From NCBI GenBank assembly GCA_016784025.1, contig JADHVL010000017.1:4892-68891 (forward strand): DNA of 64,000 bases, read 5' to 3'. How positions within the stretch are numbered: position 1 is the stretch's first letter; every line of letters starts with the position of its first letter. The position numbers and the translations under genes were made by a program. The DNA comes from Fidelibacterota bacterium. GTDB lineage: Bacteria; Fidelibacterota; UBA8477; JABMPR01. Under the pieces are notes generated by a model. The model ran no database searches. It was given only the letters and a program-made list of their open reading frames with translations, and was not told the DNA's origin. Shown here piece by piece: positions 14,881 to 62,761 of this stretch.

Positions 14881-14885
14881 GTGGA

Positions 14886-15743: not shown

Positions 15744-15789
15744 GACTCCACTTTTTATTTATTCAGTAAGGTACTTTGCAACAGGTCGG

Positions 15790-34486: not shown

Positions 34487-35296
34487 TTAATTTGTGGGTG
34501 ACTCAAGATTACTTTGATAAGCTCGACGGGCAATATGAGCCCCTCCCAGGGCACCCACAGTTTGTGGGTTTTCTGGAATATTCAAAGTCAGCCCCAGCTT
34601 TTCCTCCAACAATGCCACCAGACCCTTATTATGGGCAACACCACCAGTTAGTGTGACTTCGCCTTCAACACCAATTGATGTGACCATGCTCCAAATTCGG
34701 TTCACGATAGAACGCTGCAATCCATGTACGATTTCTTCACGAGGGGTGTTTTTGGCCAGGAGAGAAATGACTTCACTCTCGGCAAATACGGTACAGGTAC
34801 TGCTAATGGGTGCTGATTCGCCCTTGATATTCAAGGGGCTGCTCAATTCATCCAGGTCCAGTTCCAGACGGTTGGCCATGACTTCCAGAAAACGACCAGT
34901 CCCAGCAGCACATTTATCATTCATGGTGAAATCAAGCATGCGACCATGTGAATCGATTTGAATCACTTTGCTATCCTGACCACCAATATCTATCACCGTT
35001 CCTGTCCTGGGAAAGAGTTGATGTGCCCCGACACCATGGCAACTGATCTCAGTCGTTTTTCCAGTGGCAAAAGCCACTGAAGCACGTCCATAACCTGTAG
35101 CAGTGATTGCGGTGATGCCTTCCCTTGTTAGGTCGGCCAGGTTTAGAGCGGAACCAAAAGCCTCTTCAGCTGCCTCAGAACCATTCACGCCAGTAGGGAT
35201 TACAATTTCAGACAGGACTTTTCCTGAATGATCAATAATGGATACATCGGTGCTAAGGGAGCCTACATCTACACCGGCGAAATAGAGATCAGCCAT
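34487..35296 (-). CDS. 2-hydroxyacyl-CoA dehydratase / benzoyl-CoA reductase-type activase (BcrAD_BadFG ATPase)
   Basis: VDVGSLSTD, DIGGQDSKVI and NDKCAAGTGRFLE motifs. The ATG at 35296 overlaps the upstream stop by 8 nt; the track ORF extends to 35386. Confidence 0.9.
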   Translation of the reverse strand: MADLYFAGVDVGSLSTDVSIIDHSGKVLSEIVIPTGVNGSEAAEEAFGSALNLADLTREGITAITATGYGRASVAFATGKTTEISCHGVGAHQLFPRTGTVIDIGGQDSKVIQIDSHGRMLDFTMNDKCAAGTGRFLEVMANRLELDLDELSSPLNIKGESAPISSTCTVFAESEVISLLAKNTPREEIVHGLQRSIVNRIWSMVTSIGVEGEVTLTGGVAHNKGLVALLEEKLGLTLNIPENPQTVGALGGAHIARRAYQSNLESPTN

Positions 35297-36611
35297 GTTT
35301 TGATCCTTCCAGGGTTTCACAAAAGGCTTCAAGTCGAGTGTGGATCTGCTGCTCTGACCAGACCCGTTCATCGGCAATGTCCGCATCTAGAATAACGGCA
35401 GGCAGATCAAGATCAGCGGTGATGGTCTTGCGTAGATCAAATTGCCCTACTGAATAAGGTTTACAGCTCCGGGTTGAATGCATGACCATCCCATCCACTG
35501 AATAGGTTTTGATCATCTTTTTCATCAGATCAAGCCGGTGCTTCAAATTGTTATTCAAGATGATCTGTCCATAGGTTTTGGCCATGGAGGTCCAGGGATT
35601 TTTTACATCAAGATATCCTGTGGTTTCAGCCCAGGCATTGGTATAAGTAGCAGTCACAAAGTTCATTTTTCTCTCGGCAAAAAAAGTAGCCAGAAATCGG
35701 ACCTTATACCAGATGGCGATATTGTCCCAGATCAATCGGTAACGTTCATCACTGATAGCGCCAATTCCCTGAGTAACTCGCGTGTCAATCTCATCCATCA
35801 AAAAATGGTAGTAATCTTGGGCCACAGGTAACCCACGAAGGGATACGATGGGAGCAAGATGACCAAAGGCATCAAAGATGGTCATGGGTGCAGGTTGAGC
35901 TTTCATGGCATCCAGGATGGCACCCCAGGTCTTGGATGTCTCCATGGAGCGTTTGAGGATGTCTTCAAAAATATTGAGATAAAAGATCCGTCCTGATACC
36001 CGCTCAAGGATGGGAATCATATCCTGTAATTGCTGTGCCATGTAATTGATATCAGCTTCAGTCTGCTCTGTAGTGACAAAAGGAGCGTCAAAATGAATCA
36101 GGGGAATATTCAGCTCATGGGCGATGGCTTTATACCAGTAGAGGACGGTCTGACAGATATTGTTTGAACAAAACAACAGATCTGGTTTGGGAAGCTTCCC
36201 AGCAGGTGTTTTCCCAGACAGCATGTGTCCCAGATCGATACGGGCATAGGAACACAGATCCTGACTGAAGCCACTCCCTTCAGCGATTCCACAGTAATCA
36301 GCGCCTTGTTTTTTGGCTCCTACCAGGGCGGAATGATTCTCCGGATAAATGGTATAGAAATCAAAAGCCCGCAGGAGTTCGACGGGAGCCCCACTGGTGA
36401 CCCAGGCTACTTTTTTTACACCAGGGGTGTATCTGGAGAGGAAATAATGACGACTTAGAATTTCCTTAAGGCGCTTATTGGATTCCAGAGGTGGTCCGAA
36501 TGCCTCCGGAATGGGACGCGGTTTCCGCCTTTTGAAATCCTGAAGCACCATGAGAGCTGGAGCTCCATAATCTTTCATAATTTTATACTTTAATTCTGCT
36601 CTGATACTCAT
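35289..36611 (-). CDS. 2-hydroxyacyl-CoA dehydratase family (HGD-D) subunit
   Basis: 440 aa with conserved Cys contexts LCSYARID and HSTRSCKPYSVGQ, typical of the HgdA/HgdB/BcrBC family. Confidence 0.85.
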   Translation of the reverse strand: MSIRAELKYKIMKDYGAPALMVLQDFKRRKPRPIPEAFGPPLESNKRLKEILSRHYFLSRYTPGVKKVAWVTSGAPVELLRAFDFYTIYPENHSALVGAKKQGADYCGIAEGSGFSQDLCSYARIDLGHMLSGKTPAGKLPKPDLLFCSNNICQTVLYWYKAIAHELNIPLIHFDAPFVTTEQTEADINYMAQQLQDMIPILERVSGRIFYLNIFEDILKRSMETSKTWGAILDAMKAQPAPMTIFDAFGHLAPIVSLRGLPVAQDYYHFLMDEIDTRVTQGIGAISDERYRLIWDNIAIWYKVRFLATFFAERKMNFVTATYTNAWAETTGYLDVKNPWTSMAKTYGQIILNNNLKHRLDLMKKMIKTYSVDGMVMHSTRSCKPYSVGQFDLRKTITADLDLPAVILDADIADERVWSEQQIHTRLEAFCETLEGSKHG

Positions 36612-37765
36612 GCTGAAGCCATCTCAAATAGAATTTCAGTAAATGCTTCAATACGCGTTTTGTCTTGTCCTGAGATGTGGCTGTCCAGCTCTGTTTCCAG
36701 GGTTAAAACCGGAATATTTTTTTCCCGAAGCGTTTTCACCAGAAGACGATGATCGAATAACTCAGGCTCACAGAATTTTATCATATCAAAGAGCATTCCT
36801 TGAGCTTGACTTGCATCCATTAGTTTACTTAGATGGTGCAAGCGTTCATCCAGATCACCCCCGCGTGTTGAGCAAGGTGGCAAAACGAAGAATCGATCTG
36901 TTAAGTAATCCAGAGGTGAAACAGGGGTATCCATAGGAAACTTGGGGATGCGTCGGCTACCGGCAAGTAAATCATCTGCAACGATGCCAACCCCCAATTC
37001 ATCGAGAAACCTCAGTATCTCTGAAGTGGGTGGCAGGATGCCCGACACCATCAAGCGGGCTCTTGGAGATTCGGAGGGCTGATCCAAAATATCTACCTGC
37101 TCAAGCAAGCTCAAATAGTCAGAGGGGAGCAGGTACTCCTGAGCTCGCATGAGTTTGAAATAATCTAGATTATTCATGGCGAGGTGATCTGTCATGCGGG
37201 CTTGTTGGATTGCCAATAAATATGAATCGATTTTGTGACTCAACACGCAGGCAGCCAGGAGTTTCTCTGGATTTAGGGGTCCATAAATTGTTTCCAGGGT
37301 CAATTGGTAATTTTGGAGAATATCCCGGTAATATTTTGTGGTCATTTTGTTGAAACTACCCTTGGGATTGTAAAAGGTGTAAACAGGGAGGGACACACCA
37401 ATGAGATCCTTGACTTGAGTCCCCAGATTTTGCAGAGAATCACAGGTATGTGGGAAGAGATATCCTGCATTGATGATATCAGGTTCCTTGAGGATGAACT
37501 CCAGGCTTTTTTTTACAATGGGGCAAATGGTAGTCTGTAGATGTGCATTGGCGTGGAGTATTTCTCCAGGTGGATCCCAGATTTCAGTGGCATGGATATC
37601 AAAGGCCCAGAGCAGCTCTCGGGGATAGAGCGCAGGCAGGACACCCATGATTTTTTGCCCGGATTGAGCAAGGGTTTTGAGATATTCTGATCGGTCTGGT
37701 ATAGAGATGTTCATATTCTTGGTTATTTCATTGAAGGTGGTCTCATGCTTCGAGAACCTCAGCAT
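36608..37765 (-). CDS. 2-hydroxyacyl-CoA dehydratase family (HGD-D) subunit
   Basis: 385 aa with FPHTCDSLQNLG and IKFCEPELFD motifs of the HGD-D family. 4-nt overlap with the partner subunit. Confidence 0.85.
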   Translation of the reverse strand: MLRFSKHETTFNEITKNMNISIPDRSEYLKTLAQSGQKIMGVLPALYPRELLWAFDIHATEIWDPPGEILHANAHLQTTICPIVKKSLEFILKEPDIINAGYLFPHTCDSLQNLGTQVKDLIGVSLPVYTFYNPKGSFNKMTTKYYRDILQNYQLTLETIYGPLNPEKLLAACVLSHKIDSYLLAIQQARMTDHLAMNNLDYFKLMRAQEYLLPSDYLSLLEQVDILDQPSESPRARLMVSGILPPTSEILRFLDELGVGIVADDLLAGSRRIPKFPMDTPVSPLDYLTDRFFVLPPCSTRGGDLDERLHHLSKLMDASQAQGMLFDMIKFCEPELFDHRLLVKTLREKNIPVLTLETELDSHISGQDKTRIEAFTEILFEMASA

Positions 37766-37829: not shown

Positions 37830-39215
37830 CTATTTCCTGAATTTGCGGACAAAACCTTCCACCTCAGGAACGCCACCTTGATAAACAAGGTAACCATTGT
37901 AGGGCTCTCTTTCAGTAATATCATCGTTAATAGGTGTGAGCATGATTTCTTTGATCTTTTTAGGATCGTCTGTCTGCCCCAGAGTCCAGCCCAATTTAAC
38001 CCAGGCAACTTCAGGGAGCATATTGCCAAGGGGAGTAACACCCAGAGCCATCATGTCCCGACCTGTATCATAAACGAACATGTGGGCATACCCCCAGATA
38101 GTCTGAAGGGTCATAAAGACAGAGACGCCCTTGTCTCTTGCCCTTTCAAGTGCAGGATACAATTCCCTGTTCACATGTCCAAGACCAGTTCCCACAATTA
38201 CAATTCCTTTGTACCCTGCATCTACCAGGGAATCTACAATGTCAGCCTGCATGTGAGGGTAGTAGTAGAGCATGGTAACCTTCTCATTGAACGTGGGAAC
38301 AATTTTTACAGTCTTGTCCTTCCGACGATGTTTGTATTCTGTTTTGATGATTTTGAGACCTTTACGAGTCACTGTCGCTGCAGGAGTATCACCAATAGTG
38401 CGAAAAGTAGATCGGTAGGAACTATGCATTTTCCGGACACGGGTGCCGCGATGCAGGAAGCCATATTCATCAGAGGTAGGACCAAACATACACACCAACG
38501 TTTCTGCAATATCACCATGCCCGGCAGCATAAGAGGCGTGGATCAAATTCAGGGCCGCATCTGAAGATGGCCTATCGGAGGAGCGTTGTGATCCCACAAG
38601 AATGATGGGGATGGGTGAATCCTGAACCATATAGGAAAGGGCTGCAGCCGTATGATGGAGGGTGTCTGTCCCATGACCGATCACAATACCATCTGTGCCG
38701 TTGGCGATTTCTTTGCCAATGCTTTCTGCCAGGATTTTGTACTGATCTGGCCCCATGTTTTCACTAAAAACCGCGAATAGTTTTTCAGTATCGATGTTGC
38801 AAATATCAGCCAATTCAGGGACAGCACCATACAACTCACCTGGAGAAAAAGCGGGGATGACGGCACCAGTCCGATAATCCAGACGGGAAGCAATAGTTCC
38901 ACCGGTTCCAAATAATTTCACATTGGGTTTATCATCTGAATAGGGGAAGGCTTTTTCGGGAATTTTGTAATTGGCTTTTTGATAGCCCGTTTCAACCATT
39001 ATTTTAATGGTCACAATATCGATTCCAATATTGTAGCCGGTTTGAATTTTCAATACGATATGCTGATCATCATCATTTTCTGAACGAGGGAGAACCGTGC
39101 CATCAAAGGTGCCCCTGGTGGTGTGGATTTCAGCTTGACCCCAGACTCTCACACTGAATTTCTTTAGTGTGGCGAGAGCATCCCCTTTATATCCTTGAAA
39201 AATGTCATCACTCAT
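37830..39215 (-). CDS. gatD: Glu-tRNA(Gln) amidotransferase subunit D (archaeal-type GatD)
   Basis: 461 aa. A GatD-type N-terminal domain is followed by an asparaginase-like domain with GTGGTIASR and GHGTDTLHHTA catalytic motifs. Confidence 0.85.
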   Translation of the reverse strand: MSDDIFQGYKGDALATLKKFSVRVWGQAEIHTTRGTFDGTVLPRSENDDDQHIVLKIQTGYNIGIDIVTIKIMVETGYQKANYKIPEKAFPYSDDKPNVKLFGTGGTIASRLDYRTGAVIPAFSPGELYGAVPELADICNIDTEKLFAVFSENMGPDQYKILAESIGKEIANGTDGIVIGHGTDTLHHTAAALSYMVQDSPIPIILVGSQRSSDRPSSDAALNLIHASYAAGHGDIAETLVCMFGPTSDEYGFLHRGTRVRKMHSSYRSTFRTIGDTPAATVTRKGLKIIKTEYKHRRKDKTVKIVPTFNEKVTMLYYYPHMQADIVDSLVDAGYKGIVIVGTGLGHVNRELYPALERARDKGVSVFMTLQTIWGYAHMFVYDTGRDMMALGVTPLGNMLPEVAWVKLGWTLGQTDDPKKIKEIMLTPINDDITEREPYNGYLVYQGGVPEVEGFVRKFRK

Positions 39216-41211
39216 GGGATTGATTCTCTTTTTTTAATTTCTGATCAATTTCAGCGTGCAACTCTGACAATGCCACATTTCCAATGGCCTGATGATGTAT
39301 CTGACCCATGAGCCAATTGATGTCATTACCCGTTTCAGGTTTTGGAGTATTTTCTTGATATTTTTCGTATAGAAATTCTATGGGAGCAGCAATTTCAGCC
39401 ATATCGCGTTTCCTGAAATGGATACTGGTGAGAACAGAGCTGAACTGCATGTCAGGAAATTCATATATCACTGGCATCATATATTTGGCAATGCCTGGTT
39501 CCAGCTTCTTCTCCTTGATATAACGGAAAAGCTCATAGATTTTTTCATAGAAGAAGTTTTTATGTAATTTACACTTGCCCTCAATGTTTTTGAAGGTATG
39601 CCCCAGAAAAGAACCAATAGTCTTATGAGTGAAGCCATGATCGCTACAAATATTTTCAATCAGGGGGATCATGTTTTTGCTCAGGAGATACTTCCAGGTG
39701 TCCTCAGGAATGCCCCACTTTTTCATCTGTGCATAACGATCAGCAATATCTGGAGGTAATTGTTTCCCAAGGCTATCGATGAACTCAACGGTCAAAGGGA
39801 TGGGCGCAGAATCTGTGTCGGGATACATGCGATCACTTCCTGGAAGCACCCTTTCAAAAATAGTGGTGCCATCTGGAAAAGATTTCCGCGTTTCTTCAGG
39901 AACACCGTCAAAAGCCATTCGGATTCGTTCTTCCACGGTTTCCATAGCGGTTGGGATGTCCTCTGCTGGTCCCCAGAGAATGATCTGAGCGTCGTTTTTC
40001 TTAGCTCCCAGCGACTTAGATATTTTGCCCAACTCCTCATCACTCAAGAGGGGATCAAAAGTTTCAGAATGGGTCATGTTGGGTCGTTCAATACAGGCAA
40101 TTACCTTCAGGCGATGACTTATCTCATGGGCAAAACTGTGCCCGGGTTGCATGAAGTGAGAAAGGATTCCCTTTAATTTCGGAAGATTAATTGATATGAC
40201 TTTCATCCTCTGATTCAGCTTTTCTCTGAGGGGAGTTGCCAGTAGCTCTGGCATGGATAAATCGATTTCCTTGTGACTCATTTTCCATGTGCCGGGCTGG
40301 ATACCACGTTCATGAATGAGCTTTTTAATGTGCAGCAGCGCCCATTGACGAAATGCTTCATTATGGGAGAGTTCAGGGATCCATTTGTTATGGGCGACAC
40401 CTTTTATCTCAACTCGGCTTCCACCTGCACAACTCACATTGACATCTTCGCGACCAGCACCCATACCCGTACGTACTTTACCAGTACTGCGATTCAAAAA
40501 TCGTATGTATTCTGCAGCTTCTGCCAGTTCATCAGGTGTGGTCATGTCAGGGTGGGTTACTGTTTCGATGAGAGGCATGCCGAGTCGATCGGTTTTGTAA
40601 ATTCGCTCATGGCCAATATCAGATATTTCACGACAGGAATCTTCCTCAATACTGAGTTGAATCAGACGCACTTTCTTATTTTTTAATTGAAGCTCACCCT
40701 CGACGCCAAGAATGGCTGTTCTTTGGAAACCTGTTGGAATACTGCCATCCAGGTATTGTTTACGGGTGATGTGGACTTCACCCACGATATTAAGCTTGGA
40801 GAGCAGTGAAATTTCAATAGCGATCTCCAATGCTTCCGGATCAATGTGAAAAGGGGGTGTGTCATCGACTTCATAGGTGCAAGCGTTCTGATTATTGAGT
40901 CGATAGGTAATGTTTTTGCGCGTCTTAAATTCCATGAGGGCAGTACCATCATACTCACCCAGTTCACTCAATGTGGGGCGCATATGACGGATAACTTCTG
41001 CGTCAAAATCATCATCAGAATGATAGATACCAGCAGGACAGCGACAAAATAGTTTACTCCTGGTTTTGAGCTGCTGATGGACTTCCAGACCTGACTTAAA
41101 ACCAATGCGCTTATAGTCACTTGGTTTGGCTTTTTGGCGCTCCACATACCCAATGGCTTTGCGGGTCGCCATGAAATTTTTTAATGCTTCAGCTTGTTTC
41201 ATCTTCACCAA
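39208..41211 (-). CDS. gatE: Glu-tRNA(Gln) amidotransferase subunit E (archaeal-type GatE)
   Basis: 667 aa. GFKSGLEVHQQL..SKLFCRCP, LDGSIPTGFQRTA, DRLGMPLIETVTHPD, MYPDTDSAPIP and a YqeY-like tail (NWLMGQI) are collinear with GatE. 8-nt overlap with gatD. Start uncertain: TTG 41211, GTG 41208 or ATG 41202. Confidence 0.85.
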   Translation of the reverse strand: MVKMKQAEALKNFMATRKAIGYVERQKAKPSDYKRIGFKSGLEVHQQLKTRSKLFCRCPAGIYHSDDDFDAEVIRHMRPTLSELGEYDGTALMEFKTRKNITYRLNNQNACTYEVDDTPPFHIDPEALEIAIEISLLSKLNIVGEVHITRKQYLDGSIPTGFQRTAILGVEGELQLKNKKVRLIQLSIEEDSCREISDIGHERIYKTDRLGMPLIETVTHPDMTTPDELAEAAEYIRFLNRSTGKVRTGMGAGREDVNVSCAGGSRVEIKGVAHNKWIPELSHNEAFRQWALLHIKKLIHERGIQPGTWKMSHKEIDLSMPELLATPLREKLNQRMKVISINLPKLKGILSHFMQPGHSFAHEISHRLKVIACIERPNMTHSETFDPLLSDEELGKISKSLGAKKNDAQIILWGPAEDIPTAMETVEERIRMAFDGVPEETRKSFPDGTTIFERVLPGSDRMYPDTDSAPIPLTVEFIDSLGKQLPPDIADRYAQMKKWGIPEDTWKYLLSKNMIPLIENICSDHGFTHKTIGSFLGHTFKNIEGKCKLHKNFFYEKIYELFRYIKEKKLEPGIAKYMMPVIYEFPDMQFSSVLTSIHFRKRDMAEIAAPIEFLYEKYQENTPKPETGNDINWLMGQIHHQAIGNVALSELHAEIDQKLKKENQSHE

Positions 41212-41436: not shown

Positions 41437-44400
41437 ATGACCGATCTAGAAAAAACTGAATCGACATCAGGCTATACCACCCGATTTATTAGCCTCATGA
41501 TACTAGTGCTTTTCCTGTGCTCGGGAATGACTGGTTTGTTGTATGAGGTGATTTGGTCCAGGATGATTGTCAAGGTGATTGGAGCCGCTCCATTTGCCAT
41601 TAGCATTGTGCTCACCGTATTCATGGGGGGCCTGGGACTAGGGAGCTATCTGGCAGGAAAATATATTGATCAGATAAAAAAATCCTCGCAACTACTTCAA
41701 CTTTACGGTCTCATGGAAATTGGGATTGGTATATACGCTTTTATGCTAAAAGGAGTGATAGCAGCGAGTCAGCCAATATTTAGCTCTATCTACAACCAGT
41801 CATCAGAGCATCTATTGATTTTCAATGCTGTCATTCTACTGGGAGCATTTGTTCTATTCATCGTCCCCGTGACACTTATGGGCGCCACCTTGCCAATTCT
41901 AATTCGATTTTATGTGGCCAATTTAGGTCACCTCGGAGCCCGGGTTGGTCGACTATATGCCATCAATACAATTGGCGCTGCTGTTGGCTCAATTCTAAGT
42001 GGATTTTTATTGATAAAATTGTGGGGTGTTGATGGTACTCTTCGATTTGCAGTTGTCATAAATTTTCTAATCGGTGGCATCTCATTTGTCCTGGCCAATT
42101 GGGTAGCCAAGCGTTCTGCTCTGGATGAGCAAAATGCCGACAGACATAATGTTGAAGTATCACAACCTGCAGTTGGTATTCAGTATTCCCGTCCTCACCA
42201 GCTGGCCGTACTGGCTATATTTGCTGTTTCTGGATATGCCGCCATGGCCTATGAGGTGATCTGGACAAGATTGTTGGGTCTCATCATTGGACCGACGACG
42301 TATTCCTTCACCATTGTGCTGACTACCTTTATTGTAGGTCTAGCCCTGGGAGCCATGTTCTTTGGATGGCTGGCGGACCGAAGCAAACATCCTTTCCGAC
42401 TCCTGCTTATCACCCAGATGAGTGCAGCTATTCTGGCCCTTGCAGTAAGTCAGTTTTTGGGTAATAGTCAATTTTTCTTCGCCAAGCTGATCTTCAGTTT
42501 CAGAGATGATTTTGTCATGCTCTCCATAGCCAAGGCGACGCTATTATTCTTTTTGCTACTGGGTCCAACCCTTGCGCTGGGAGCCACATTTCCCCTGGTA
42601 GGTAAGATCTACACCAGTTCCATTCGGAAACTGGGCAAGTCCATTGGATTTGCATATGCTATCAATACCATTGGTGCATTACTGGGGGCCTTCTCGGCTG
42701 GTTTTGTTCTGATTCCCCTGTTCGGCAAGGAAAACAGCCTGAGCCTGGTCATCGGTATTCAATTGCTTACCGTCCTGGCTATCGTTGGTCTTCTCTATCC
42801 CAAGGGCGAAAACTCCCGAATCAGACTCATTCTTTTAATTTCTGGAATCCTTGGTCTGCTCCTCACTTTTGCATTCCCCCATTGGGATAGAGAACAATTA
42901 GCGACAGGGAAATATTATAGATTTAGCAGCTATGCTGATATCATAAAAAACACTAGCTGGTGGGATGCCCTGGTGAAGATGCCCAGGGATTTCATGCCCA
43001 ATATCAGTGGCACAGAGGTGGTCTTTTATGGGGATGGCATAGGTGGTTTTACAACAGTGGAGCAGGATATTGACCCACTTGGAAAGCCACAATATGTTCT
43101 ATATAATAGCGGTAAGGCCGACGCGTCTTCAGAATCGGATATGGCTACTCAAACCATGCTGGCTCATCTGCCACTATTGTTTCACCCTCAACCCAAAAAT
43201 GTAATGATTCTAGGCTTGGCCAGTGGGGTTACGGCAGGAGAAGCAATTTATTATGATTTAGATCGGCTGGATATTCTAGAAATTAGTGAACAGGTCGTAG
43301 AAGCCAGTGATTTTTTTAGCGAAACGAATAGTGATGTACTTTCACATCCCGCCACAAATTTGATAATCCAGGATGGTAGAGCCCATCTGGAATTGACGGA
43401 GCAAGTATATGATGTCATTACTTCAGAGCCATCCAATCCGTGGATGGCTGGACTGGCGAACTTATTTACTGAAGAGTTCTTCAGGCTAACCAAAAACAGA
43501 CTGAGCTGGGATGGTGTATTTATTCAGTGGTTGCCATCCTACCAGATGGATTGGACCACATTCTCAATGATAGGAAGAACTTTCACCAAGGTTTTTCCCA
43601 ATAGCTTATTGATGAAGTCATTTCTTGGTGGAAATGATTACTTATTGGTGGGCTTTAATGGCCTGAAACAACTTGACCTTAAAAATGGGCTTAAAAATTT
43701 GCCCAAGCTTCAAAAATCTCCCAATCTCATTGTAGAAGATCCCAGGATATTGTACCGACTCATTGTAAGTGATAATCTACCTGCTTTGTTTGGTTCAGGA
43801 CCAGGACACACTGATGATCACCCCATTCTTGAATTTATGGCACCACAACGAATGCATTTGGTAGATAAAACCGTGGAGAAAACTCTGGCGGAAAGACGAA
43901 CCCTCAGTGATGAGATTATTGAAGTCATGCGGGAAGTCCTTGATGTAGATGGACAGCTCAAATTTGCCAGGTTTATGCTTTCTGTTTATTCCCCCTTTCC
44001 AGATATGGTTGATTTATCCGCCGCAACAGAGGAGCAAAAAGTTGAGTATATCGAGATGTTAATGGAATATGGTAAAAATAACGCGGTTCAGGATTACGAC
44101 ATGTTTGAAAGCACGGGTTTGAGAGATACTGTGATTCAAACACAAATAGCTCAACTTACTCAAAAATTACCAAGTCTCCCGAATCGACTTGCTTCCTTTT
44201 TCATCCTGGCCAATGCTCACGCTGAGTTGGGAGATTTCGATGAGGCTATCAAATATTGTCGGCAAATCATTGAAATGGGCAGTGATCCCATTGAGGCAAA
44301 TCTCAATTTAGGTTTGTTTTGTATGAATGCTGGACGGAATGAAGAAGCAATCGCTGCCTACAATACCGTCTTGGAGCTGGATCCTGAACACAGTCATGCT

Positions 44401-45159
44401 CACAATAATCTGGGGACACTTTTCGAGCAGGCTGGGGAGACAAAAAATGCGAAAACTTCCTATGAACAAGCTGTTCTCATTGATCCAGATCTGGCAATAG
44501 CCCATTTCAATCTGGGTCGCTTACATATGAGCTCAGGGGCTGTGGATTCAGCAATGCTTGCCTATGCTATCGTGCTGAAATTGGACCCTGAATACATTCC
44601 TGCTTATTATCGGATCAGCCAAATCTATCAACTTTCAGGAGATTATGAAAAGGCCATTGCCATCATGGAAGCCCTTCTCAAAATTCGTCCTGATTTAAAA
44701 GAAGCCCAGGTTGAAATAAAAAATCTCACCGTGCGAATGGAACAGAAACAGGAACCACCGAAGGTATCCGTTCAGATGCCCCCTCGTACAGCAAAATCAG
44801 ACAAAAGTACGGATCCCAGATATTTTTATAACCAGGCTGTCATGTTGATTCAGAAGCAAAAATATAGAGAAGCGATGGTTGATTTTGAACGGGCACTTTC
44901 TTTAAAACCAGACTACCTGAACGCTATCATTGGACTTGGAGCCATGTATCAGAACCTGAGTGAGTATGATGCTGCAATCAGCCAGTATAAGCGAGCCCTG
45001 GTTATTGATCCAAATCATAGCGGGACCCACAATAACATAGCCATCAATTATTATACGGTGCGAAAATATAAATTGGCCATTGAACATGCCGATAGGGCCA
45101 AAGCATTGGGTTTTAATGTTCAACAGGCCTTTTTGGATGAATTATCAAAGTATCGATAG
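41437..45159 (+). CDS. Fused polytopic membrane / spermidine-synthase-like / TPR-repeat protein
   Basis: 1240 aa: about 14 N-terminal TM helices, an aminopropyl/methyltransferase-like core (ILGLASGVTAGEA, DVITSEPSNPW), then multiple TPR repeats (...AYNTVLELDPEHSHAHNNLG...). Confidence 0.8.
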   Translation: MTDLEKTESTSGYTTRFISLMILVLFLCSGMTGLLYEVIWSRMIVKVIGAAPFAISIVLTVFMGGLGLGSYLAGKYIDQIKKSSQLLQLYGLMEIGIGIYAFMLKGVIAASQPIFSSIYNQSSEHLLIFNAVILLGAFVLFIVPVTLMGATLPILIRFYVANLGHLGARVGRLYAINTIGAAVGSILSGFLLIKLWGVDGTLRFAVVINFLIGGISFVLANWVAKRSALDEQNADRHNVEVSQPAVGIQYSRPHQLAVLAIFAVSGYAAMAYEVIWTRLLGLIIGPTTYSFTIVLTTFIVGLALGAMFFGWLADRSKHPFRLLLITQMSAAILALAVSQFLGNSQFFFAKLIFSFRDDFVMLSIAKATLLFFLLLGPTLALGATFPLVGKIYTSSIRKLGKSIGFAYAINTIGALLGAFSAGFVLIPLFGKENSLSLVIGIQLLTVLAIVGLLYPKGENSRIRLILLISGILGLLLTFAFPHWDREQLATGKYYRFSSYADIIKNTSWWDALVKMPRDFMPNISGTEVVFYGDGIGGFTTVEQDIDPLGKPQYVLYNSGKADASSESDMATQTMLAHLPLLFHPQPKNVMILGLASGVTAGEAIYYDLDRLDILEISEQVVEASDFFSETNSDVLSHPATNLIIQDGRAHLELTEQVYDVITSEPSNPWMAGLANLFTEEFFRLTKNRLSWDGVFIQWLPSYQMDWTTFSMIGRTFTKVFPNSLLMKSFLGGNDYLLVGFNGLKQLDLKNGLKNLPKLQKSPNLIVEDPRILYRLIVSDNLPALFGSGPGHTDDHPILEFMAPQRMHLVDKTVEKTLAERRTLSDEIIEVMREVLDVDGQLKFARFMLSVYSPFPDMVDLSAATEEQKVEYIEMLMEYGKNNAVQDYDMFESTGLRDTVIQTQIAQLTQKLPSLPNRLASFFILANAHAELGDFDEAIKYCRQIIEMGSDPIEANLNLGLFCMNAGRNEEAIAAYNTVLELDPEHSHAHNNLGTLFEQAGETKNAKTSYEQAVLIDPDLAIAHFNLGRLHMSSGAVDSAMLAYAIVLKLDPEYIPAYYRISQIYQLSGDYEKAIAIMEALLKIRPDLKEAQVEIKNLTVRMEQKQEPPKVSVQMPPRTAKSDKSTDPRYFYNQAVMLIQKQKYREAMVDFERALSLKPDYLNAIIGLGAMYQNLSEYDAAISQYKRALVIDPNHSGTHNNIAINYYTVRKYKLAIEHADRAKALGFNVQQAFLDELSKYR

Positions 45160-52399: not shown

Positions 52400-52536
52400 C
52401 AAAAAAGAAATTACTCATATCTTAAGCTTTCGAATTGCTCAAATAATGATTTACATTAGTAGCTAGCCATTAAACACGTTCTTGTTGAGCATAATTAATA
52501 TTGAAGCACAAACACATGCAGGGGAGAAGCATAAAA

Positions 52537-53436
52537 ATGAACTTTAAAACACAGGGAATGCAGATACTGATTACTGCTTTTTTAAGTACGGGACTGATTT
52601 TCGCCCAAGGTATGGGTGGGGGGGGTCATCATGGTGGTGGTCCTGGCGGACCTGGTGCTGGTGGTTGGGGACCTGGTGATAGTACAGGATGTGATTCAAC
52701 AGGGGGTGGTCATCATGGTGGTGGTTGGGGACCTGGCGATAGCACCTGGCATGACAGTTTAGGACATGGTGGACATCATGGACCTGGGCATGGCGGTCCT
52801 GGACATGGTGGACCTGGGCATGGATTCGGTCATGGTGACAGCTTGAGCCTGGATAGTATATTCGTGAGTGGTGTCATCTCCACACTACCTGATACCATGG
52901 ATTTTAACGGCCATGTCCGTATACATGTATCCTATTTCCTTGATGTGGATGGGGACCTGATCGCTGATTATCGTCTAGTTCATCTCAGGGGATTGCAGCA
53001 TGCTGATTCAAACTTTGTTTTGCCCGTTCATGGCAATCTGGTTGAGCTATCCGGACTTTTATTTCCCTCCGATGAGATCCTGGATCGAATCGCTGTTTTA
53101 AGTTTAAGTATTATCGATGAAGACGGTCTATTCGGTACCCTTGGGGTAGTGGATCCGGCATCAACCGGGATGCATTTTGGTCTTCAATCCAGACATTATC
53201 CCAATCCCTTCAATCCCAGTACATCCATCGAATTTTCAATTGAATCAACAGGTCATGTATCTTTAAAGGTATATGATATTACCGGGGTTGAGGTGGCTCA
53301 ACTTATGGATGGAACATATGCTGCAGGTTTACATACGATCCAATTTAACCCAGGTACTTTGAGCGCCGGAACCTACCTCTATGTGATTGAATCAAATGGC
53401 ATGAGAGAAGTAAAACGGGTGGCCTATCTCAAATAA
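52537..53436 (+). CDS. Secreted Gly/His-rich protein with T9SS C-terminal sorting domain
   Basis: Signal peptide MNFKTQGMQILITAFLSTGLIFAQG, low-complexity GGGHHGGGPGGPG...GHGGHHGPGHGGPGHGGPGHGFGHG, and a C-terminal YPNPFNPSTSIEF...YLYVIES...VAYLK sorting domain. The track ORF begins at TTG 52501. Confidence 0.7.
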   Translation: MNFKTQGMQILITAFLSTGLIFAQGMGGGGHHGGGPGGPGAGGWGPGDSTGCDSTGGGHHGGGWGPGDSTWHDSLGHGGHHGPGHGGPGHGGPGHGFGHGDSLSLDSIFVSGVISTLPDTMDFNGHVRIHVSYFLDVDGDLIADYRLVHLRGLQHADSNFVLPVHGNLVELSGLLFPSDEILDRIAVLSLSIIDEDGLFGTLGVVDPASTGMHFGLQSRHYPNPFNPSTSIEFSIESTGHVSLKVYDITGVEVAQLMDGTYAAGLHTIQFNPGTLSAGTYLYVIESNGMREVKRVAYLK

Positions 53437-53623: not shown

Positions 53624-55324
53624 TTATTTGATAAGGGTTAGCTTTTGTACATTCATTTTATGACCACTGATGATGCGAACCAGATAAACACCTGAGTTGT
53701 ATCCACTCATATCTATTTGGAGACTATGATTCCCTGCTTCTTCAATCCCATCACTGAGAACCGCCAGCTCTGTCCCAGTCACAGAATAGAGCACAATCTG
53801 AGTATTCATACGTTCAGGTAGTTCATATTGAATGTTTGTAATTGGGTTGAAGGGATTTGGGTAAGCACCCGTGATGGTGAATTCTTTCGGCAAACCTGAA
53901 CCAATCTCATCAACATCAGAAGCAGTCATAATTTCTACCCATTCAGATTCACCTACAGGATTTTCAGAGCGGAGACGATATTCCCATTCCACACCATTGG
54001 CGATGTAGATCTCAGCATCTACATAGGAGGAGTGACTGGAATCAGGATAGGCCAGGGTAGCCCACTCACTGGTTGAATCAGCAATAGTTACGCGTCGTTG
54101 AAGGTGGTAGTTGAATTCGTTATTGCTGGGATCATCCACCCAATTAAGCTCAATCCAGGTTCCTAGTGGGTCATTTGTGATTTGTGATTCTAAATCAGTT
54201 GGAGCAGTAGGGTGGATGAATTCAACTATAAAAGGAGTTATGATTCCGGACAACCCTATGGCTGAGCCAACAATGAATTTTCCATCATCTGAGATTCCGT
54301 TTGCCTGTGGTAAAAACCAATCCTCCAAAAAATCGTCATCATCAACAAGAACCTGGAGACTGTCCTTGAGATAGGAGATCCCATTTTCTGGTGTATATAT
54401 AATTGCATCACGAGTCCAGATCCAGGTCTGTGCTTGTGCAAATCCAACGGACGTTCCATCATCAATGATATCCATGGGGATGACACCTGCTTCAACAGGA
54501 TTATGTCCAGGTGCAAATCCAATATCTTGCATGCCAGTTTCTTCTGTCCAAACAAACATGGCATTTGGGGACCAACCACAGATGTAATTACCACTGGGAC
54601 TGACACCGAAAGCTTCGCCAGCTACCCAGCCACCCTGGTCACCATTATACCCAAGGAAGACAAGCTCATATTCTCCAGTGAGTTCGTTTAGAACCCAGGC
54701 ATGTGCCGAGCGATCAGTATACTGACCATCCACTTCGATGGAAGCCCAGCCCACGATGACACTACCATCAGCACTCATGTCATTGGGACGACTGCTTAGC
54801 AAGAGACCGTTGTCAGGGAGTAATTCACCATCTGGATCTTCAGGTGTCCAGACAAATGCTGTGGTTCTGTAGTTATCATGCCAGTACATTCCGGCCACGA
54901 TGAAGGTATCCGCCGCCACTGCCCAGGCACCCTGGTACATATATGGATCAAAAGGTTGAGTGCCCTGAATGGGACCAATCATGACCCATTCCTCACCATC
55001 ATAATAGCAGGCAGCATCAACATCGGTTATGGTGTCACCCATCATCATGGGGAAGGGAGATTCACCTACAAGCAATCCGTTGTTATCCATAGCACGAATT
55101 GATCGACCTCCTGTGTGCTCCACCCCCTCCTCTGCTGTCCATAGATAGCTACTGCCAAAGTAGTAGGCACCTCCGAGAAGGGAACCATCTTCATTGGTCC
55201 ACCAGAGGGAACCACCCAGGGGATCAGGAAAGTTTTCTATCACTGAGAATCTTACAATTTCGGGATCAGCAAAGAGGACTGTGCTGATAAAGAGAAGCGT
55301 ACTGAGAATTTTTTTAAGTTTCAT
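53624..55324 (-). CDS. Secreted repeat protein (HAF-like beta-propeller repeats + Fn3 + T9SS sorting domain), paralog A
   Basis: 566 aa with a signal peptide. Recurring ..D/N.S.DG..(I/V)VG.. modules (MDNNGLLVGES, MSADGSVIVGWA, ISDDGKFIVGSA), an Fn3-like segment (PTAPTDL...WEYRLRSENPVGES) and a C-terminal YPNPFNPITNIQY...VYLVRIISG...LTLIK. Confidence 0.8.
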   Translation of the reverse strand: MKLKKILSTLLFISTVLFADPEIVRFSVIENFPDPLGGSLWWTNEDGSLLGGAYYFGSSYLWTAEEGVEHTGGRSIRAMDNNGLLVGESPFPMMMGDTITDVDAACYYDGEEWVMIGPIQGTQPFDPYMYQGAWAVAADTFIVAGMYWHDNYRTTAFVWTPEDPDGELLPDNGLLLSSRPNDMSADGSVIVGWASIEVDGQYTDRSAHAWVLNELTGEYELVFLGYNGDQGGWVAGEAFGVSPSGNYICGWSPNAMFVWTEETGMQDIGFAPGHNPVEAGVIPMDIIDDGTSVGFAQAQTWIWTRDAIIYTPENGISYLKDSLQVLVDDDDFLEDWFLPQANGISDDGKFIVGSAIGLSGIITPFIVEFIHPTAPTDLESQITNDPLGTWIELNWVDDPSNNEFNYHLQRRVTIADSTSEWATLAYPDSSHSSYVDAEIYIANGVEWEYRLRSENPVGESEWVEIMTASDVDEIGSGLPKEFTITGAYPNPFNPITNIQYELPERMNTQIVLYSVTGTELAVLSDGIEEAGNHSLQIDMSGYNSGVYLVRIISGHKMNVQKLTLIK

Positions 55325-55339
55325 GTTATTAGTCCTGTT

Positions 55340-57046
55340 TTATTTAATAAGTGTCAATTTTTGAACAGCCATTTTATCACCGCTTATGATCCGTATGAGA
55401 TATACCCCAGAGCTGAAATCACTCATGTCCAACTGTAGAGTATATTTTCCGGCTGCAAACTGTCCTTCGCGAAGGACAGTCAACTCGGAACCTGTCACAG
55501 AATAAAGCGCGATCTTCGTATTCATCTGCTCAGGTATTTCATACTGAATGTTCGTAATTGGATTGAATGGGTTTGGGTATGCGCCTACAATTTTGAATTC
55601 AGTTGGGAGTCCTGAAGCAATGCGGTCAGTACTTGAAGCCGTCATGATCTCTACCCAGGCTGATTCTCCAACAGGGTTTTCAGCCCTGAGACGATATTCC
55701 CATTCCACCCCATTGGCGAAGTAAAGTTCAGTGTCTCTATAAGTATTCTCTGCTGAATCAGGATTGGCAATGGTAGCCCAATCACTGGTAGAGTCGGCGA
55801 TAATTACGCGTCGCTGCAAATTATATGAGAATTCATTATTCACTGGATCATCAGTCCATGTGAGATCAATCCAGGTTCCATCAGCATCGTTGTAAATTTC
55901 AGAGGAAAGATCTGTTGGAGCAGAAGGCGGGATGAACTCAAGTACAAACGGGGCCAATATCCCAGCTAATCCGATAGCACTCCCCACGATGACCCGTCCA
56001 TCTTCCGAGATGGAGTTGGCTTGAAGAAAAGCCCAGTCTTCAAATTGATCTTCCAGCCCCAGGTTTTCCAGGCTGTCTTTAAGGAAGATAATCCCACTTT
56101 CAGTGGTATAAATAATAGCGCTTCTTCCCCATTCATTAAAGATGGGTTGAGCAAAGCCTACGATGGTCGTATCCGAAGAGGCATCCATACCACTTGCACT
56201 CGCCCATGTTGGATCATGTCCTGGTGCGTGACCCAGATTGACCATACCTTCATCTTCTGTCCAGACGAACAACTCTGTATCACCTGATCTTCCGACAATA
56301 ATTTCTCCATTGTCACTGCAGCCATATGCCTCACCACCCATCCAGCCCTCATCAGCGCCAAGTGCGCCGAGAAACACTAGCTCATAATCGCCAGTGATTT
56401 CATCCAAAATCCAGGCATGGGCAGCTCTGCTGACGTAATCAACACCAGCAGTTCCCATGGAAGCGAAACCCACGATCAATTCACCATTGGCACTTATGTC
56501 ATTGGGTCGACTACTATGCTCAAGACCATGGTCGGGCAGGAGCTCACCATCTGGATCTTCTGGCGTCCACACAAATGCGGTGGTCCTTGAGTTTTCATGC
56601 CAGTACATACCAGCAACGATAAAGGTATCTGCTGCAATAGCCCAGGCGCTTTGATAAAAATTTGGATCGTTAGGCAAAGTACCAGCGATGGGTCCTATCA
56701 TGACCCATTCCTCACCATCGAAATATGAGGCGGCGCTGACCTCTGTCAGGGTATCACCCATAATCATTGGGAAGTAGTTATTCCCGATAAAGGTACCTTG
56801 ATTGTCCATTCCTCGGACATTCGTCCCACCGACATCTTGGATGCCATTTTCTTGACTCCAGAGGAATCCTCCTCCCCAATAGTAGGATCCTCCCAAGAGA
56901 TTGCCATTACTATTGGTCCAGTTCATTTGCCCTCCCGCAGGATCTGCAAGGCCTGCGGCAATAGTAAATTTAACAATTTCTGGATCTTCTGCGAAAAGAG
57001 TTGTGCTAAGGAGGGCTAGAGCTGGTATGAGCTTTCTAAATATCAT
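55340..57046 (-). CDS. Secreted repeat protein (HAF-like repeats + Fn3 + T9SS sorting domain), paralog B
   Basis: 568 aa, collinear with paralogs A and C. 15 nt from paralog A. Confidence 0.8.
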   Translation of the reverse strand: MIFRKLIPALALLSTTLFAEDPEIVKFTIAAGLADPAGGQMNWTNSNGNLLGGSYYWGGGFLWSQENGIQDVGGTNVRGMDNQGTFIGNNYFPMIMGDTLTEVSAASYFDGEEWVMIGPIAGTLPNDPNFYQSAWAIAADTFIVAGMYWHENSRTTAFVWTPEDPDGELLPDHGLEHSSRPNDISANGELIVGFASMGTAGVDYVSRAAHAWILDEITGDYELVFLGALGADEGWMGGEAYGCSDNGEIIVGRSGDTELFVWTEDEGMVNLGHAPGHDPTWASASGMDASSDTTIVGFAQPIFNEWGRSAIIYTTESGIIFLKDSLENLGLEDQFEDWAFLQANSISEDGRVIVGSAIGLAGILAPFVLEFIPPSAPTDLSSEIYNDADGTWIDLTWTDDPVNNEFSYNLQRRVIIADSTSDWATIANPDSAENTYRDTELYFANGVEWEYRLRAENPVGESAWVEIMTASSTDRIASGLPTEFKIVGAYPNPFNPITNIQYEIPEQMNTKIALYSVTGSELTVLREGQFAAGKYTLQLDMSDFSSGVYLIRIISGDKMAVQKLTLIK

Positions 57047-57068
57047 TTTGAGAGTCTTTTGTTTATGT

Positions 57069-58778
57069 CTATTTGATCAGAGTAAGTTTTTGAACATCCA
57101 TTTTATCCCCACTGATGATACGAACGAGATAAACACCAGAACTGTACCCGCTCATGTCCACTTGGAGACTATGATTGCCGGCTTCTGCCATGCCATCACT
57201 AAGAACCGCCAACTCGGTACCTGTCACAGAATAGAGTACAATTTTCGTATTCATCTGCTCAGGTGTTTCATACTGAACGTTTGTAATTGGGTTGAAGGGG
57301 TTTGGGTATGCGCCTACAATTTTGAACTCAGTTGGGAGTCCTGAAGCAATGCGGTCCGTACTTGAAGCTGTCATGATCTCCACCCAGTCAGATTCACCCA
57401 CTGGGTTTTCAGCACGAAGACGATATTCCCACTCCACACCATTTGCAAAGTAGAGTTCACTATCTCTATAGGTATTGTCGGCTGAATCAGGATTGGCGAT
57501 AGTTGTCCACTCACTGGTAGAGTCAGCAATGGTCACGCGACGTTGTAGATTATAGGAAAATTCATTATTGGTGGGATCATCAGTCCAGCTAAGATCAATC
57601 CAGGTCCCCAAGGGGTCGTTATATAGCTCAGAAGCCAGGTCTGAAGGTGCTGAGGGGGGGATAAATTCCAGGATGAAAGGAGCCATGATTCCATCAATAC
57701 CAGCACAGCTACCCACGATGAAACGGCCATCATCTGATATATCATTAGCCTGGAAAAAGCCCCAATCTTCTAAAAAGTCATCATCATCTACCAGAATTTG
57801 TAAACTATCTTTTAGAAATTTAATGCCACTTTCGGGAGTGTATATAATTGCTTCACGAGTCCATACCCAGGTTTGATTCTGGGCAAAACCCACAGCTGTC
57901 CCATTATCAATAATATCCATGGGTATAACACCAGCTGACTCTGGATTATGACCAGGGGCATATCCCATATCCTGAATCCCTGTTGCTTCAGACCAAATGA
58001 ACATAGCTGAGGGTGACCAGCCACAAATCAACTCCCCATTGGGACTCACACCATACGCTTCGCCTCCAACCCAGGGTTCATGACCACCCAATGAGCCAAG
58101 AAAAACCAGGTCATATTCTCCAGTAGTTTCATTCAAAAACCAGGCATAGGCAGCTCTATCTGTATATTGACCATCAGTGTCAACGCCTGCCCACCCAACA
58201 ATAACACTGCCATCAGCATTCATATCATTGGGTCTGCTGCTTAGCAAGAGGCCATTATCTGGGAGCAATTCACCATCTGGATCTTCAGGTGTCCAGATAA
58301 AAGCTGTTGTTCGGTAATTATCATGCCAGTACATACCGGCTATGATCATGGTATCAGCCGCAATGGACCAGGCACCTTGATACATATTGGGATCAAAAGG
58401 TAGCGTCCCGGCTATGGGGCCGATCATGACCCATTCTTCACCATCATAATAGCTGGCAGCTTCGACATCAGTCAGGGTATCACCCATGAGCATGGGAAAA
58501 ATAGTCTCACCAACCATAATACCATTATTATCCATTCCACGGATGTAATAACCACCTATGTTATCAATACCATCTTCTTCGGTCCAGGTAAAACCACCAC
58601 CAAAATAGTTGGCACCACCGAATATGGAGCCGTCACTATTTGAGTAGTACAGGCCGCCACCCCATTGATCTAAGAGGCCATCCACCACCGTAAATTTTAC
58701 TATTTCTGGATCAGCAAAGCCTAAAGAAACGAGCAGGAGTAGACTAATAGTAATAAGCTTAATAAGATTTGATTTCAT
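57069..58778 (-). CDS. Secreted repeat protein (HAF-like repeats + Fn3 + T9SS sorting domain), paralog C
   Basis: 569 aa, collinear with paralogs A and B. 22 nt from paralog B. Confidence 0.8.
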   Translation of the reverse strand: MKSNLIKLITISLLLLVSLGFADPEIVKFTVVDGLLDQWGGGLYYSNSDGSIFGGANYFGGGFTWTEEDGIDNIGGYYIRGMDNNGIMVGETIFPMLMGDTLTDVEAASYYDGEEWVMIGPIAGTLPFDPNMYQGAWSIAADTMIIAGMYWHDNYRTTAFIWTPEDPDGELLPDNGLLLSSRPNDMNADGSVIVGWAGVDTDGQYTDRAAYAWFLNETTGEYDLVFLGSLGGHEPWVGGEAYGVSPNGELICGWSPSAMFIWSEATGIQDMGYAPGHNPESAGVIPMDIIDNGTAVGFAQNQTWVWTREAIIYTPESGIKFLKDSLQILVDDDDFLEDWGFFQANDISDDGRFIVGSCAGIDGIMAPFILEFIPPSAPSDLASELYNDPLGTWIDLSWTDDPTNNEFSYNLQRRVTIADSTSEWTTIANPDSADNTYRDSELYFANGVEWEYRLRAENPVGESDWVEIMTASSTDRIASGLPTEFKIVGAYPNPFNPITNVQYETPEQMNTKIVLYSVTGTELAVLSDGMAEAGNHSLQVDMSGYSSGVYLVRIISGDKMDVQKLTLIK

Positions 58779-62633: not shown

Positions 62634-62761
62634 TAATCTTAATACAATTGGGTAGGCTACGCTTGCTGGTTTGGTGAGGAAGAGTCATCCTTGTTGAATA
62701 TTGAGAATTTTTACTTATTCTATGGCGCAAAATAACTACAGTACTGTTAAAGGACCCTGGT

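Follow-up and report, generated by a model that had tools for sequence, protein, structure and literature searches.

Bacteria usually solve the amidation of mis-acylated tRNA with the amidotransferase GatCAB. The GatDE enzyme has been described in print as specific to archaea, in papers from 2008 to 2022 (PMC2330236, PMC8007984, PMC9499178). The two enzymes read different first base pairs of tRNA(Gln): archaeal GatDE recognizes A1-U72 together with the D-loop, whereas bacterial GatCAB recognizes U1-A72 (PMC2330236, PMC9499178). Here we analyzed a 64,000-nucleotide stretch (“the window”) of contig JADHVL010000017.1 (positions 4,892 to 68,891) from the Fidelibacterota bacterium assembly GCA_016784025.1. 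A preliminary description, made from the letters of the window, had proposed that two of its open reading frames (ORFs) encode an archaeal-type GatD/GatE pair in bacterial surroundings. Our results indicate that these ORFs most likely constitute a functional gatE-gatD operon encoding a GatDE-type tRNA-dependent amidotransferase, with activity and tRNA substrate predicted by homology. The pair belongs to a family that is resident in many bacterial genomes.

Each subunit was recognized by models of its own family. GatD scored 483 bits on NF003217 (cut-off 310) and 482 bits on TIGR02153 (cut-off 324), and its best phmmer match in the PDB was 2D6F_A of Methanothermobacter thermautotrophicus (E = 2.8e-111, residues 8-437). 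The domains PF18195, PF00710 and PF17763 each exceed their gathering scores, and the first of these, GatD_N, is the feature that sets GatD apart from free asparaginases. The motifs GTGGTIASR and GHGTDTLHHTA, pointed out in the preliminary description, are both present in the translation. Residues T107, T183, D184 and K262 are invariant across 58 GatD sequences. T107 is the predicted Thr nucleophile, and T183, K262 and D184 form the predicted Thr-Lys-Asp triad, with K262 presumably the triad lysine according to motif alignment.

GatE scored 466.1 bits on NF003107, a margin of only 10 bits over the cut-off of 456, and 392.1 bits on TIGR00134 (cut-off 319.55). The GatB models gave 42-121 bits against cut-offs of 315-680, the best being 121.4 against 338. 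Given that the GatD and GatE equivalog cut-offs were passed and those of GatB were failed, the pair is GatD/GatE, as proposed, rather than GatB with an ordinary asparaginase. The phmmer matches of GatE in the PDB included 2D6F_C (1.1e-87) and 1ZQ1_C (3.8e-81). Foldseek with an AlphaFold2 model of GatE ranked 1ZQ1_C and 2D6F_D/C on top (1.7e-23 to 1.7e-20), followed by GatB chains. This model was derived from a shallow alignment (43 sequences, ≥67% identity), has a mean predicted local distance difference test score (pLDDT) of 66.7 with a poor cradle domain, and was used only for the insertion, the tail and the Foldseek ranking. All the GatE motifs listed earlier (GFKSGLEVHQQL..SKLFCRCP, LDGSIPTGFQRTA, DRLGMPLIETVTHPD and MYPDTDSAPIP) were found in the translation. 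Residues H45, E189 and E216 align to His15, Glu157 and Glu184 of M. thermautotrophicus GatE, which are Mg2+ ligands whose mutation abolishes both kinase and transamidase activity (PMC2330236). They are kept in every aligned sequence (42 bacterial, 82 archaeal and 3 GatB), with a gap at H45 in one bacterial and one archaeal sequence.

The GatB_N Pfam match covers GatE residues 40-478 against a model of 277 positions, thus GatE contains an insert of about 160 residues that has no counterpart in GatB. The GAD domain (PF02938) scored 18.9 bits on the insertion, below its gathering score of 23.4. The insertion is modeled confidently, retrieves AspRS chains in Foldseek searches (E ~1e-2) and is collinear with relatives that bear PF02938. 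The C-terminal tail is all-helical in the AlphaFold2 model (block pLDDT mostly 75-94). Its previously noted likeness to YqeY receives indirect support: the tail itself matches GatB_Yqey (PF02637) at a sub-threshold 12.7 bits (E = 0.11), whereas the tails of other bacterial GatE proteins pass the threshold (39.2 and 27.4 bits), and hhalign placed the window group and other bacterial GatE end to end over 636 columns (probability 100) with the tails in register.

Both ORFs lie where they had been reported and are encoded on the minus strand, which the preliminary description left unstated. The transcription order is gatE (41211 to 39208) followed by gatD (39215 to 37830). Counted from a TTG at 41211, the gatE ORF has 667 codons. 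The gene calls of independent assemblies start at an ATG at 41202, giving 664 amino acids, and this is the probable true start. The reported 8-nt overlap of the two genes is real, as read directly from the sequence, and suggests that gatE and gatD may be translationally coupled. The same order, gatE then gatD, with overlaps of 8-17 nt, was found in all three distant bacterial members that were examined (L066, L068 and L075). Searches for sigma-70-type promoters, intrinsic terminators and the Bacteroidetes -7 motif TAnnTTTG gave matches at or below chance, with nothing usable around the operon.

Table 1. Features of the gatE-gatD locus in window coordinates.
Feature	Coordinates	Strand	Remarks
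gatE, GatE subunit (tRNA-dependent kinase/amidotransferase)	39208..41211	(-)	stop codon 39208-39210
gatD, GatD subunit (asparaginase-type glutaminase, ammonia supply)	37830..39215	(-)	461 amino acids
gatE stop/gatD start overlap, 8 nt, ATGAGTGA	39208..39215	(-)	...CAT GAG TGA over ATG AGT GA
GatD N-terminal domain (GatD_N, residues 30-73)	38997..39128	(-)	PF18195 46.2 bits, gathering score 25.7
GatD asparaginase N- and C-terminal domains (residues 98-425)	37941..38924	(-)	PF00710 182 bits, PF17763 105 bits
GatE cradle (catalytic) domain, N-terminal part (residues ~32-300)	40312..41118	(-)	H45, E189, E216; most signature positions
GatE insertion domain, AspRS/GAD-like (residues ~301-440)	39892..40311	(-)	sub-threshold GAD; AspRS Foldseek matches
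GatE C-terminal helical tail (residues ~479-667), putative diverged YqeY-like domain	39211..39777	(-)	weak Pfam match; helical model; hhalign

The surroundings of the pair are bacterial, as had been noted. The window encodes HtpG, an Lgt-like protein, RND/OEP efflux systems, TetR regulators, EgtB/EgtD and at least five proteins with the Por_Secre_tail sorting domain of the type IX secretion system (T9SS). The composition of the two genes does not stand out from the window: G+C content z-scores are +0.5 for gatD and -0.4 for gatE, those for G+C at third codon positions are +0.35 and +0.13, and the genes rank 8th (gatD) and 11th (gatE) of 49 window ORFs in the typicality of their codon usage. 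Independent runs and assemblies yielded 23 contigs that encode an identical GatD protein, with the same junctions and shared neighbors (a divergent gene with tetratricopeptide repeat (TPR) and major facilitator superfamily (MFS) regions, gatE, gatD, two HGD-D genes and an activase). A genome scan with one genome per GTDB species returned 65 gatE loci, none from a cultivated strain. In 61 of them gatD directly follows gatE, including the complete chromosome OY775914.1 and contigs of 1.4-1.7 Mb. The closest loci (77-95% GatE identity) are on metagenome-assembled genomes (MAGs) labeled Neomarinimicrobiota, and the rest (52-81%) carry Bacteroidales or Rikenellaceae labels. In most Bacteroidales loci the pair is bordered on one side by a lolCE-like permease, a pyridoxal phosphate-dependent aminotransferase and valS, and on the other by an mltF-like gene, ftsZ, ftsA, ftsQ and murC. 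Because the 23 independent contigs agree and synteny is retained in 61 of 65 genomes, the earlier worry about an assembly chimera could be excluded without read mapping, as could mis-binning.

Both genes are in use and tightly constrained. Measured against relatives with unsaturated dS, the ratio of nonsynonymous to synonymous substitution rates (dN/dS) is 0.012-0.025 for gatD, the lowest among the shared neighboring genes in each comparison, and 0.03-0.06 for gatE. The two are also encoded together and co-inherited, given their adjacency in 61 of 65 genomes and in distant members and the concordance of the GatD and GatE trees.

Some of the related loci have features of their own. The NCBI labels of the MAGs closest to the window (L001-L013) conflict, being variously Neomarinimicrobiota, Lentisphaeria, “bacterium” and Bacteroidales. 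Their GatE proteins nest inside the Bacteroidales-labeled set (L014-L065), and T9SS cargo is abundant in the window. The MAG SI053_bin30 has two contigs with gatE, JABIFX010000160.1 (L003) and JABIFX010000060.1 (L007), which are 92% and 86% identical to that of the window; either two strains are mixed in the bin or the locus is duplicated. In three Microflora Danica MAGs (L059, L060 and L063) gatE is split into several ORFs and gatD is whole, and our guess is that assembly indel errors are likelier than pseudogenes.

To determine how widely the enzyme occurs, we ran a full HMMER pass over 1.84 billion cluster representatives, which retrieved 610 proteins at E ≤ 1e-30. When the best full-length GatE matches were placed in a tree, the window sequence fell in a clade of 42 representatives, and all members that could be checked are bacterial, those identified by name being Deltaproteobacteria and CSSED10-310. 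The gatE-gatD pairs of three distant members are next to a sigma-54 activator, HisKA and RND/OEP genes (L066), next to Lnt, MurC/MurD, MraZ and RsmH (L068), and on a 5.98-Mb circular contig with SecA, an extracytoplasmic function sigma factor and RND genes (L075). A profile of the non-Bacteroidales members added Calditrichia, KSB1, Aminicenantes, Latescibacteria, Krumholzibacteria, Desulfaltia and one Clostridiales-labeled record. On phage and plasmid records we found no bacterial-type GatDE, only GatB, asparaginases of ≤32% identity and one GatE on a haloarchaeal megaplasmid. In combination, the results show that gatDE is resident in many genomes of the Fibrobacteres-Chlorobi-Bacteroidetes (FCB) group, of Acidobacteriota (Aminicenantes) and of Desulfobacterota type. 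The view of GatDE as a family confined to archaea does not hold, given the bacterial context here and in every sampled clade member. This departure is taxonomic and not structural, and the membership of the window proteins in the family is unaffected.

Phylogenies of both subunits against archaeal sequences and GatB or asparaginase outgroups, as suggested in the preliminary description, place the window proteins near Asgard archaea and not with the outgroups. The GatE trees were calculated by neighbor joining with three GatB sequences as outgroup, leaving out the Natrinema GatE from a plasmid record, which had been truncated by ORF trimming. Bacterial GatE was monophyletic in 93 of 100 bootstrap replicates with Kimura distances and in 58 of 60 with gamma distances, and the GatB root fell within the archaeal set in 93 of 100 replicates. 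The Bacteroidales-like GatE proteins form a subclade on a long stem (60 of 60 replicates). The nearest named archaeal GatE sequences are all from Asgard archaea (Heimdallarchaeota, Hodarchaeales and Lokiarchaeum ossiferum); those of Thorarchaeota and Odinarchaeota lie near the root. The immediate sister group of bacterial GatE holds a named Asgard sequence in 48 of 58 replicates. In the GatD tree, rooted with asparaginases, the bacteria group with Loki and Heimdall sequences to the exclusion of M. thermautotrophicus and Pyrococcus abyssi in 196 of 200 replicates. The gene order in L. ossiferum, gatE then gatD, is as in the bacteria, and the Heimdall genes are arranged divergently.

We identified 21 GatE positions at which nearly all members of the bacterial clade share a residue that archaea seldom have, for example where archaeal DGSNT corresponds to bacterial DGSIP. 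Most are in the cradle domain, at 76-121, 152-159 and 193-201, and the others are at 418 and 453. The Heimdall sequence shares the bacterial state at 14 of the 21 positions and other Asgard-group sequences at 5-9, compared with 0-3 in the remaining 73 archaeal representatives. These trees and residues are most economically read as a single ancient event in which a gatE-gatD cassette passed from an Asgard-like archaeon to bacteria; spread among phyla may have come next, and after it vertical descent within the Bacteroidales-like lineage. The earlier suggestion of inter-domain transfer is supported, given the monophyly of the bacterial clade and the GatB root among archaea, but the event was neither isolated nor recent, as the genes occur in multiple phyla, are ameliorated and evolve under purifying selection. 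The gatDE genes of the window are not a recent import.

If the enzyme works as its archaeal homolog (PMC2330236, PMC9499178), a GatD dimer would bind two GatE subunits. GatD would hydrolyze Gln or Asn using the nucleophile T107 and the triad T183/K262/D184, and the ammonia released would pass through a tunnel to the GatE active site. There, GatE would grip the acceptor arm and D-loop of Glu-tRNA(Gln), phosphorylate the gamma-carboxyl group of the mis-attached glutamate with ATP and Mg2+ held by H45, E189 and E216, and amidate the activated intermediate to yield Gln-tRNA(Gln). We give a probability of roughly 0.55 to the reading that GatDE is the main Glu-tRNA(Gln) amidotransferase of the cell and has taken over this role from GatCAB, and lean to it because the constraint on both genes is so strong.

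Several points weigh against this reading. An unmodified enzyme of archaeal type would be expected to work poorly on typical bacterial tRNA(Gln), because archaeal GatDE reads A1-U72 and GatCAB reads U1-A72. Thus, either the enzyme would have been retuned, possibly through the 21 cradle substitutions and the divergence of its tail, or the tRNA(Gln) of the host differs. The same cradle differences, or a tail that falls below the YqeY threshold, could also mean an altered substrate. Cultivated Bacteroidales usually encode GlnRS, AsnRS and GatCAB, so that a further Glu-tRNA(Gln) amidotransferase would be redundant unless one of these were lost. We found no report in the literature of activity for any bacterial GatDE. 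The window and the 10 kb around the pair in 68 loci contain neither glnS, gatCAB, gltX nor tRNA(Gln), a result that is uninformative for whole genomes. By tblastn with Escherichia coli GlnRS and Enterococcus and Bacillus GatA and GatB, no glnS, gatA or second gatB was detected in the window or in 68 loci, only gatE being matched; tRNA genes were likewise absent from the window and from 44 related loci, with no Rfam match. On the phylogenetic side, the trees are distance-based only, the archaeal sample for GatD comprised four sequences and most representatives carry no taxonomic label.

The presence of GlnRS, AsnRS and GatCAB in cultivated Bacteroidales generally would also be consistent with an auxiliary role, in which GlnRS and/or GatCAB remain intact and GatDE offers the cell an additional way to make Gln-tRNA(Gln), for example under certain nitrogen or stress conditions. 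So would the confinement of GatDE to a subset of environmental Bacteroidales (the 65 species genomes, none cultivated), and one report describes bacteria that keep GatCAB together with GlnRS and AsnRS (PMC4206432). However, the dN/dS values of both genes would suit an indispensable translation factor better than a back-up, synteny of the pair persists across relatives whose GatE proteins are merely 55-80% identical, and a GlnRS combined with a discriminating GluRS would leave GatDE without a substrate. We consider such an auxiliary role rather unlikely. A change of substrate is improbable to a greater degree. By this account the chemistry was kept and redirected to another acyl-tRNA, such as Asp-tRNA(Asn), or to another carboxylate, and it would fit the 21 positions that differ from nearly all non-Asgard archaeal GatE and cluster in the cradle, the YqeY-like tail and GAD insertion below Pfam thresholds in the window subclade, and the different tRNA(Gln) identity elements of the host domain (PMC2330236). 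Yet the Mg2+ ligands and the asparaginase triad are all invariant, the predicted tRNA-binding modules are all kept and collinear over the 636 columns, and the tail is recognizable as YqeY in other bacterial members. The signature residues are, moreover, partly common to Asgard GatE, which presumably makes Gln-tRNA(Gln), and no conserved neighbor hints at secondary metabolism, the linkage to HGD-D and activase genes being limited to about 11 close relatives.

That the pair is an artefact, either an archaeal fragment mis-assembled or mis-binned or an over-interpreted GatB and type I asparaginase, has a negligible probability. The sole weak point that it could exploit is the conflict among the labels of the closest MAGs (Neomarinimicrobiota, Lentisphaeria and Bacteroidales). 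It is refuted by the junctions repeated on 23 contigs from independent runs and assemblies, by the synteny in 61 of 65 genomes, a closed chromosome among them, and the 5.98-Mb circular contig, by a gatD and gatE composition typical of the window, and by GatB scores far below cut-offs where the GatD and GatE equivalog models were passed.

Returning to GatDE as the main amidotransferase, we can only tentatively, and at somewhat less than even odds, suggest a full history. A Heimdall-like Asgard GatDE may have spread through the FCB group, Aminicenantes and Desulfobacterota, where it displaced GatCAB and/or made GlnRS unnecessary, and its cradle and tail may have been retuned to U1-A72, with the 21 fixed substitutions and the diverged tail as the trace. 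If true, this displacement and retuning would overturn GatDE as an archaeal signature, and the retuned enzyme would offer a natural experiment on how an amidotransferase and tRNA identity co-evolve. If GatDE merely duplicates GatCAB or GlnRS, the case is of less interest, yet it is a clean ancient inter-domain transfer.

The enzyme itself is unremarkable, in contrast to its host range, its evolutionary origin and the problem of tRNA recognition that it poses. The exclusivity of GatDE to archaea underlies arguments on its co-evolution with archaeal tRNA(Gln) and on why GlnRS never entered Archaea. The bacterial clade indicates that a core enzyme of translation supply crossed the domain boundary and persisted, and raises the question of how an enzyme that reads A1-U72 would function in cells whose tRNA(Gln) normally starts with U1-A72. 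The 21 signature positions are candidate residues for a switch in specificity. Where GatD and GatE hidden Markov models serve as archaeal marker genes, as in some genome-quality and taxonomy pipelines, matches in FCB-group genomes could be misread as contamination. The NCBI and JGI pipelines already name bacterial proteins GatE, and full-text literature searches, which could not cover subscription-only papers, returned no report of bacterial GatDE. As far as we have seen, bacterial GatDE is thus present in databases and apparently undiscussed in print. Of the earlier caveat that the enzyme might prove already common and documented in this lineage, the first part is correct, in that it is common and automatically annotated in databases, but no paper documenting it was found.

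When examining the genes around the pair we noted two HGD-D genes (2-hydroxyacyl-CoA dehydratase D-component-like) and a BcrAD/BadFG activase at 34487-37765 (-), directly downstream of gatD, with no terminator-like site in between. We considered these as conserved functional partners of gatDE and rejected the link, because the adjacency is limited to the approximately 11 closest MAGs; about 50 other loci are without it. Divergent from gatE, at 41437-45159 (+), is a gene for a 1240-amino acid fusion of an MFS region, a spermine/spermidine-synthase domain and a long TPR array, which is kept in 8 related loci. About 15 Bacteroidales loci have a glutamine-synthetase-like gene approximately five genes from the pair (e.g., L036:9795-11324). 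Glutamine is the amide donor for GatD; the gene scores 214.7 bits against a GlnA cut-off of 429, and its distance and orientation give no evidence of co-regulation with gatE-gatD.

Farther away, at 11601-17070 (-), EgtD (TIGR03438, 367 bits) and EgtB (TIGR03440, 584 bits) flank a fused OsmF/ProW-like ATP-binding cassette transporter of betaine type and its ATPase, and this region may be a module for ergothioneine synthesis plus transport. Three tandem ORFs of 566-569 amino acids at 53624-58778 (-) each terminate in a T9SS sorting domain and have no other Pfam match; their paralogy is presumed from size and architecture only. They are flanked by two further T9SS-sorted proteins at 52501-53436 and 59199-61655. 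An adjacent pair of TrmB-family regulators, one with a DUF7436 C-terminal domain, is located at 61776-63607 (+).

Among known systems, GatB of GatCAB is a paralog of GatE and shares with it the cradle domain, the three Mg2+ ligands, the YqeY-like tail and the kinase and amidation chemistry (PMC2330236). It differs in lacking the AspRS-like insertion, in being about 190 residues shorter and in its partners, the amidase GatA and GatC, where GatE is paired with the asparaginase-type GatD. The window locus has no gatA or gatC. The type I L-asparaginases (AnsA-like) have the fold and catalytic residues of the GatD core in common with it, and GatD passes their model TIGR00519 (362 bits against 260.5). 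What separates GatD from these enzymes is its additional GatD_N domain, higher scores on the GatD equivalog models, an identity to free asparaginases of only about 31% and a gene that is coupled to gatE, the overlap suggesting coupling at the level of translation.

The archaeal GatDE enzymes of M. thermautotrophicus (2D6F) and P. abyssi (1ZQ1) have the same two subunits, all the known catalytic residues and the same domain order as the window pair: GatD_N and the asparaginase N- and C-terminal domains in GatD, and the cradle, AspRS-like insertion and helical, putatively YqeY-like tail in GatE. Window GatD is 44% identical to both archaeal GatD proteins, and GatE is 28-30% identical to 2D6F/1ZQ1 in Foldseek alignments. 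In contrast to the archaeal enzymes, the window pair has a bacterial host, the 21 clade substitutions in the cradle and an overlapping gatE-gatD operon, and the tail and insertion of its subclade have diverged below Pfam thresholds. Its tRNA(Gln) partner is presumed to be of the bacterial type, normally U1-A72, as opposed to the archaeal A1-U72 (PMC2330236). Both the GatE and the GatD trees place the Asgard enzymes of Heimdallarchaeota (TET29438.1), Hodarchaeales (MHA2245723.1) and Lokiarchaeum ossiferum closest among archaea, and these share 6-14 of the 21 bacterial signature residues. Even so, window GatD is only 47-48% identical to Asgard GatD, and window GatE is 38% identical to the Heimdall protein (P0158) and 36% to the Loki protein (P0270). 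The Asgard genes sit in an archaeal context, for example near genes for ribosomal proteins S13, S4 and S11 and a TFIIB-type zinc-ribbon gene.

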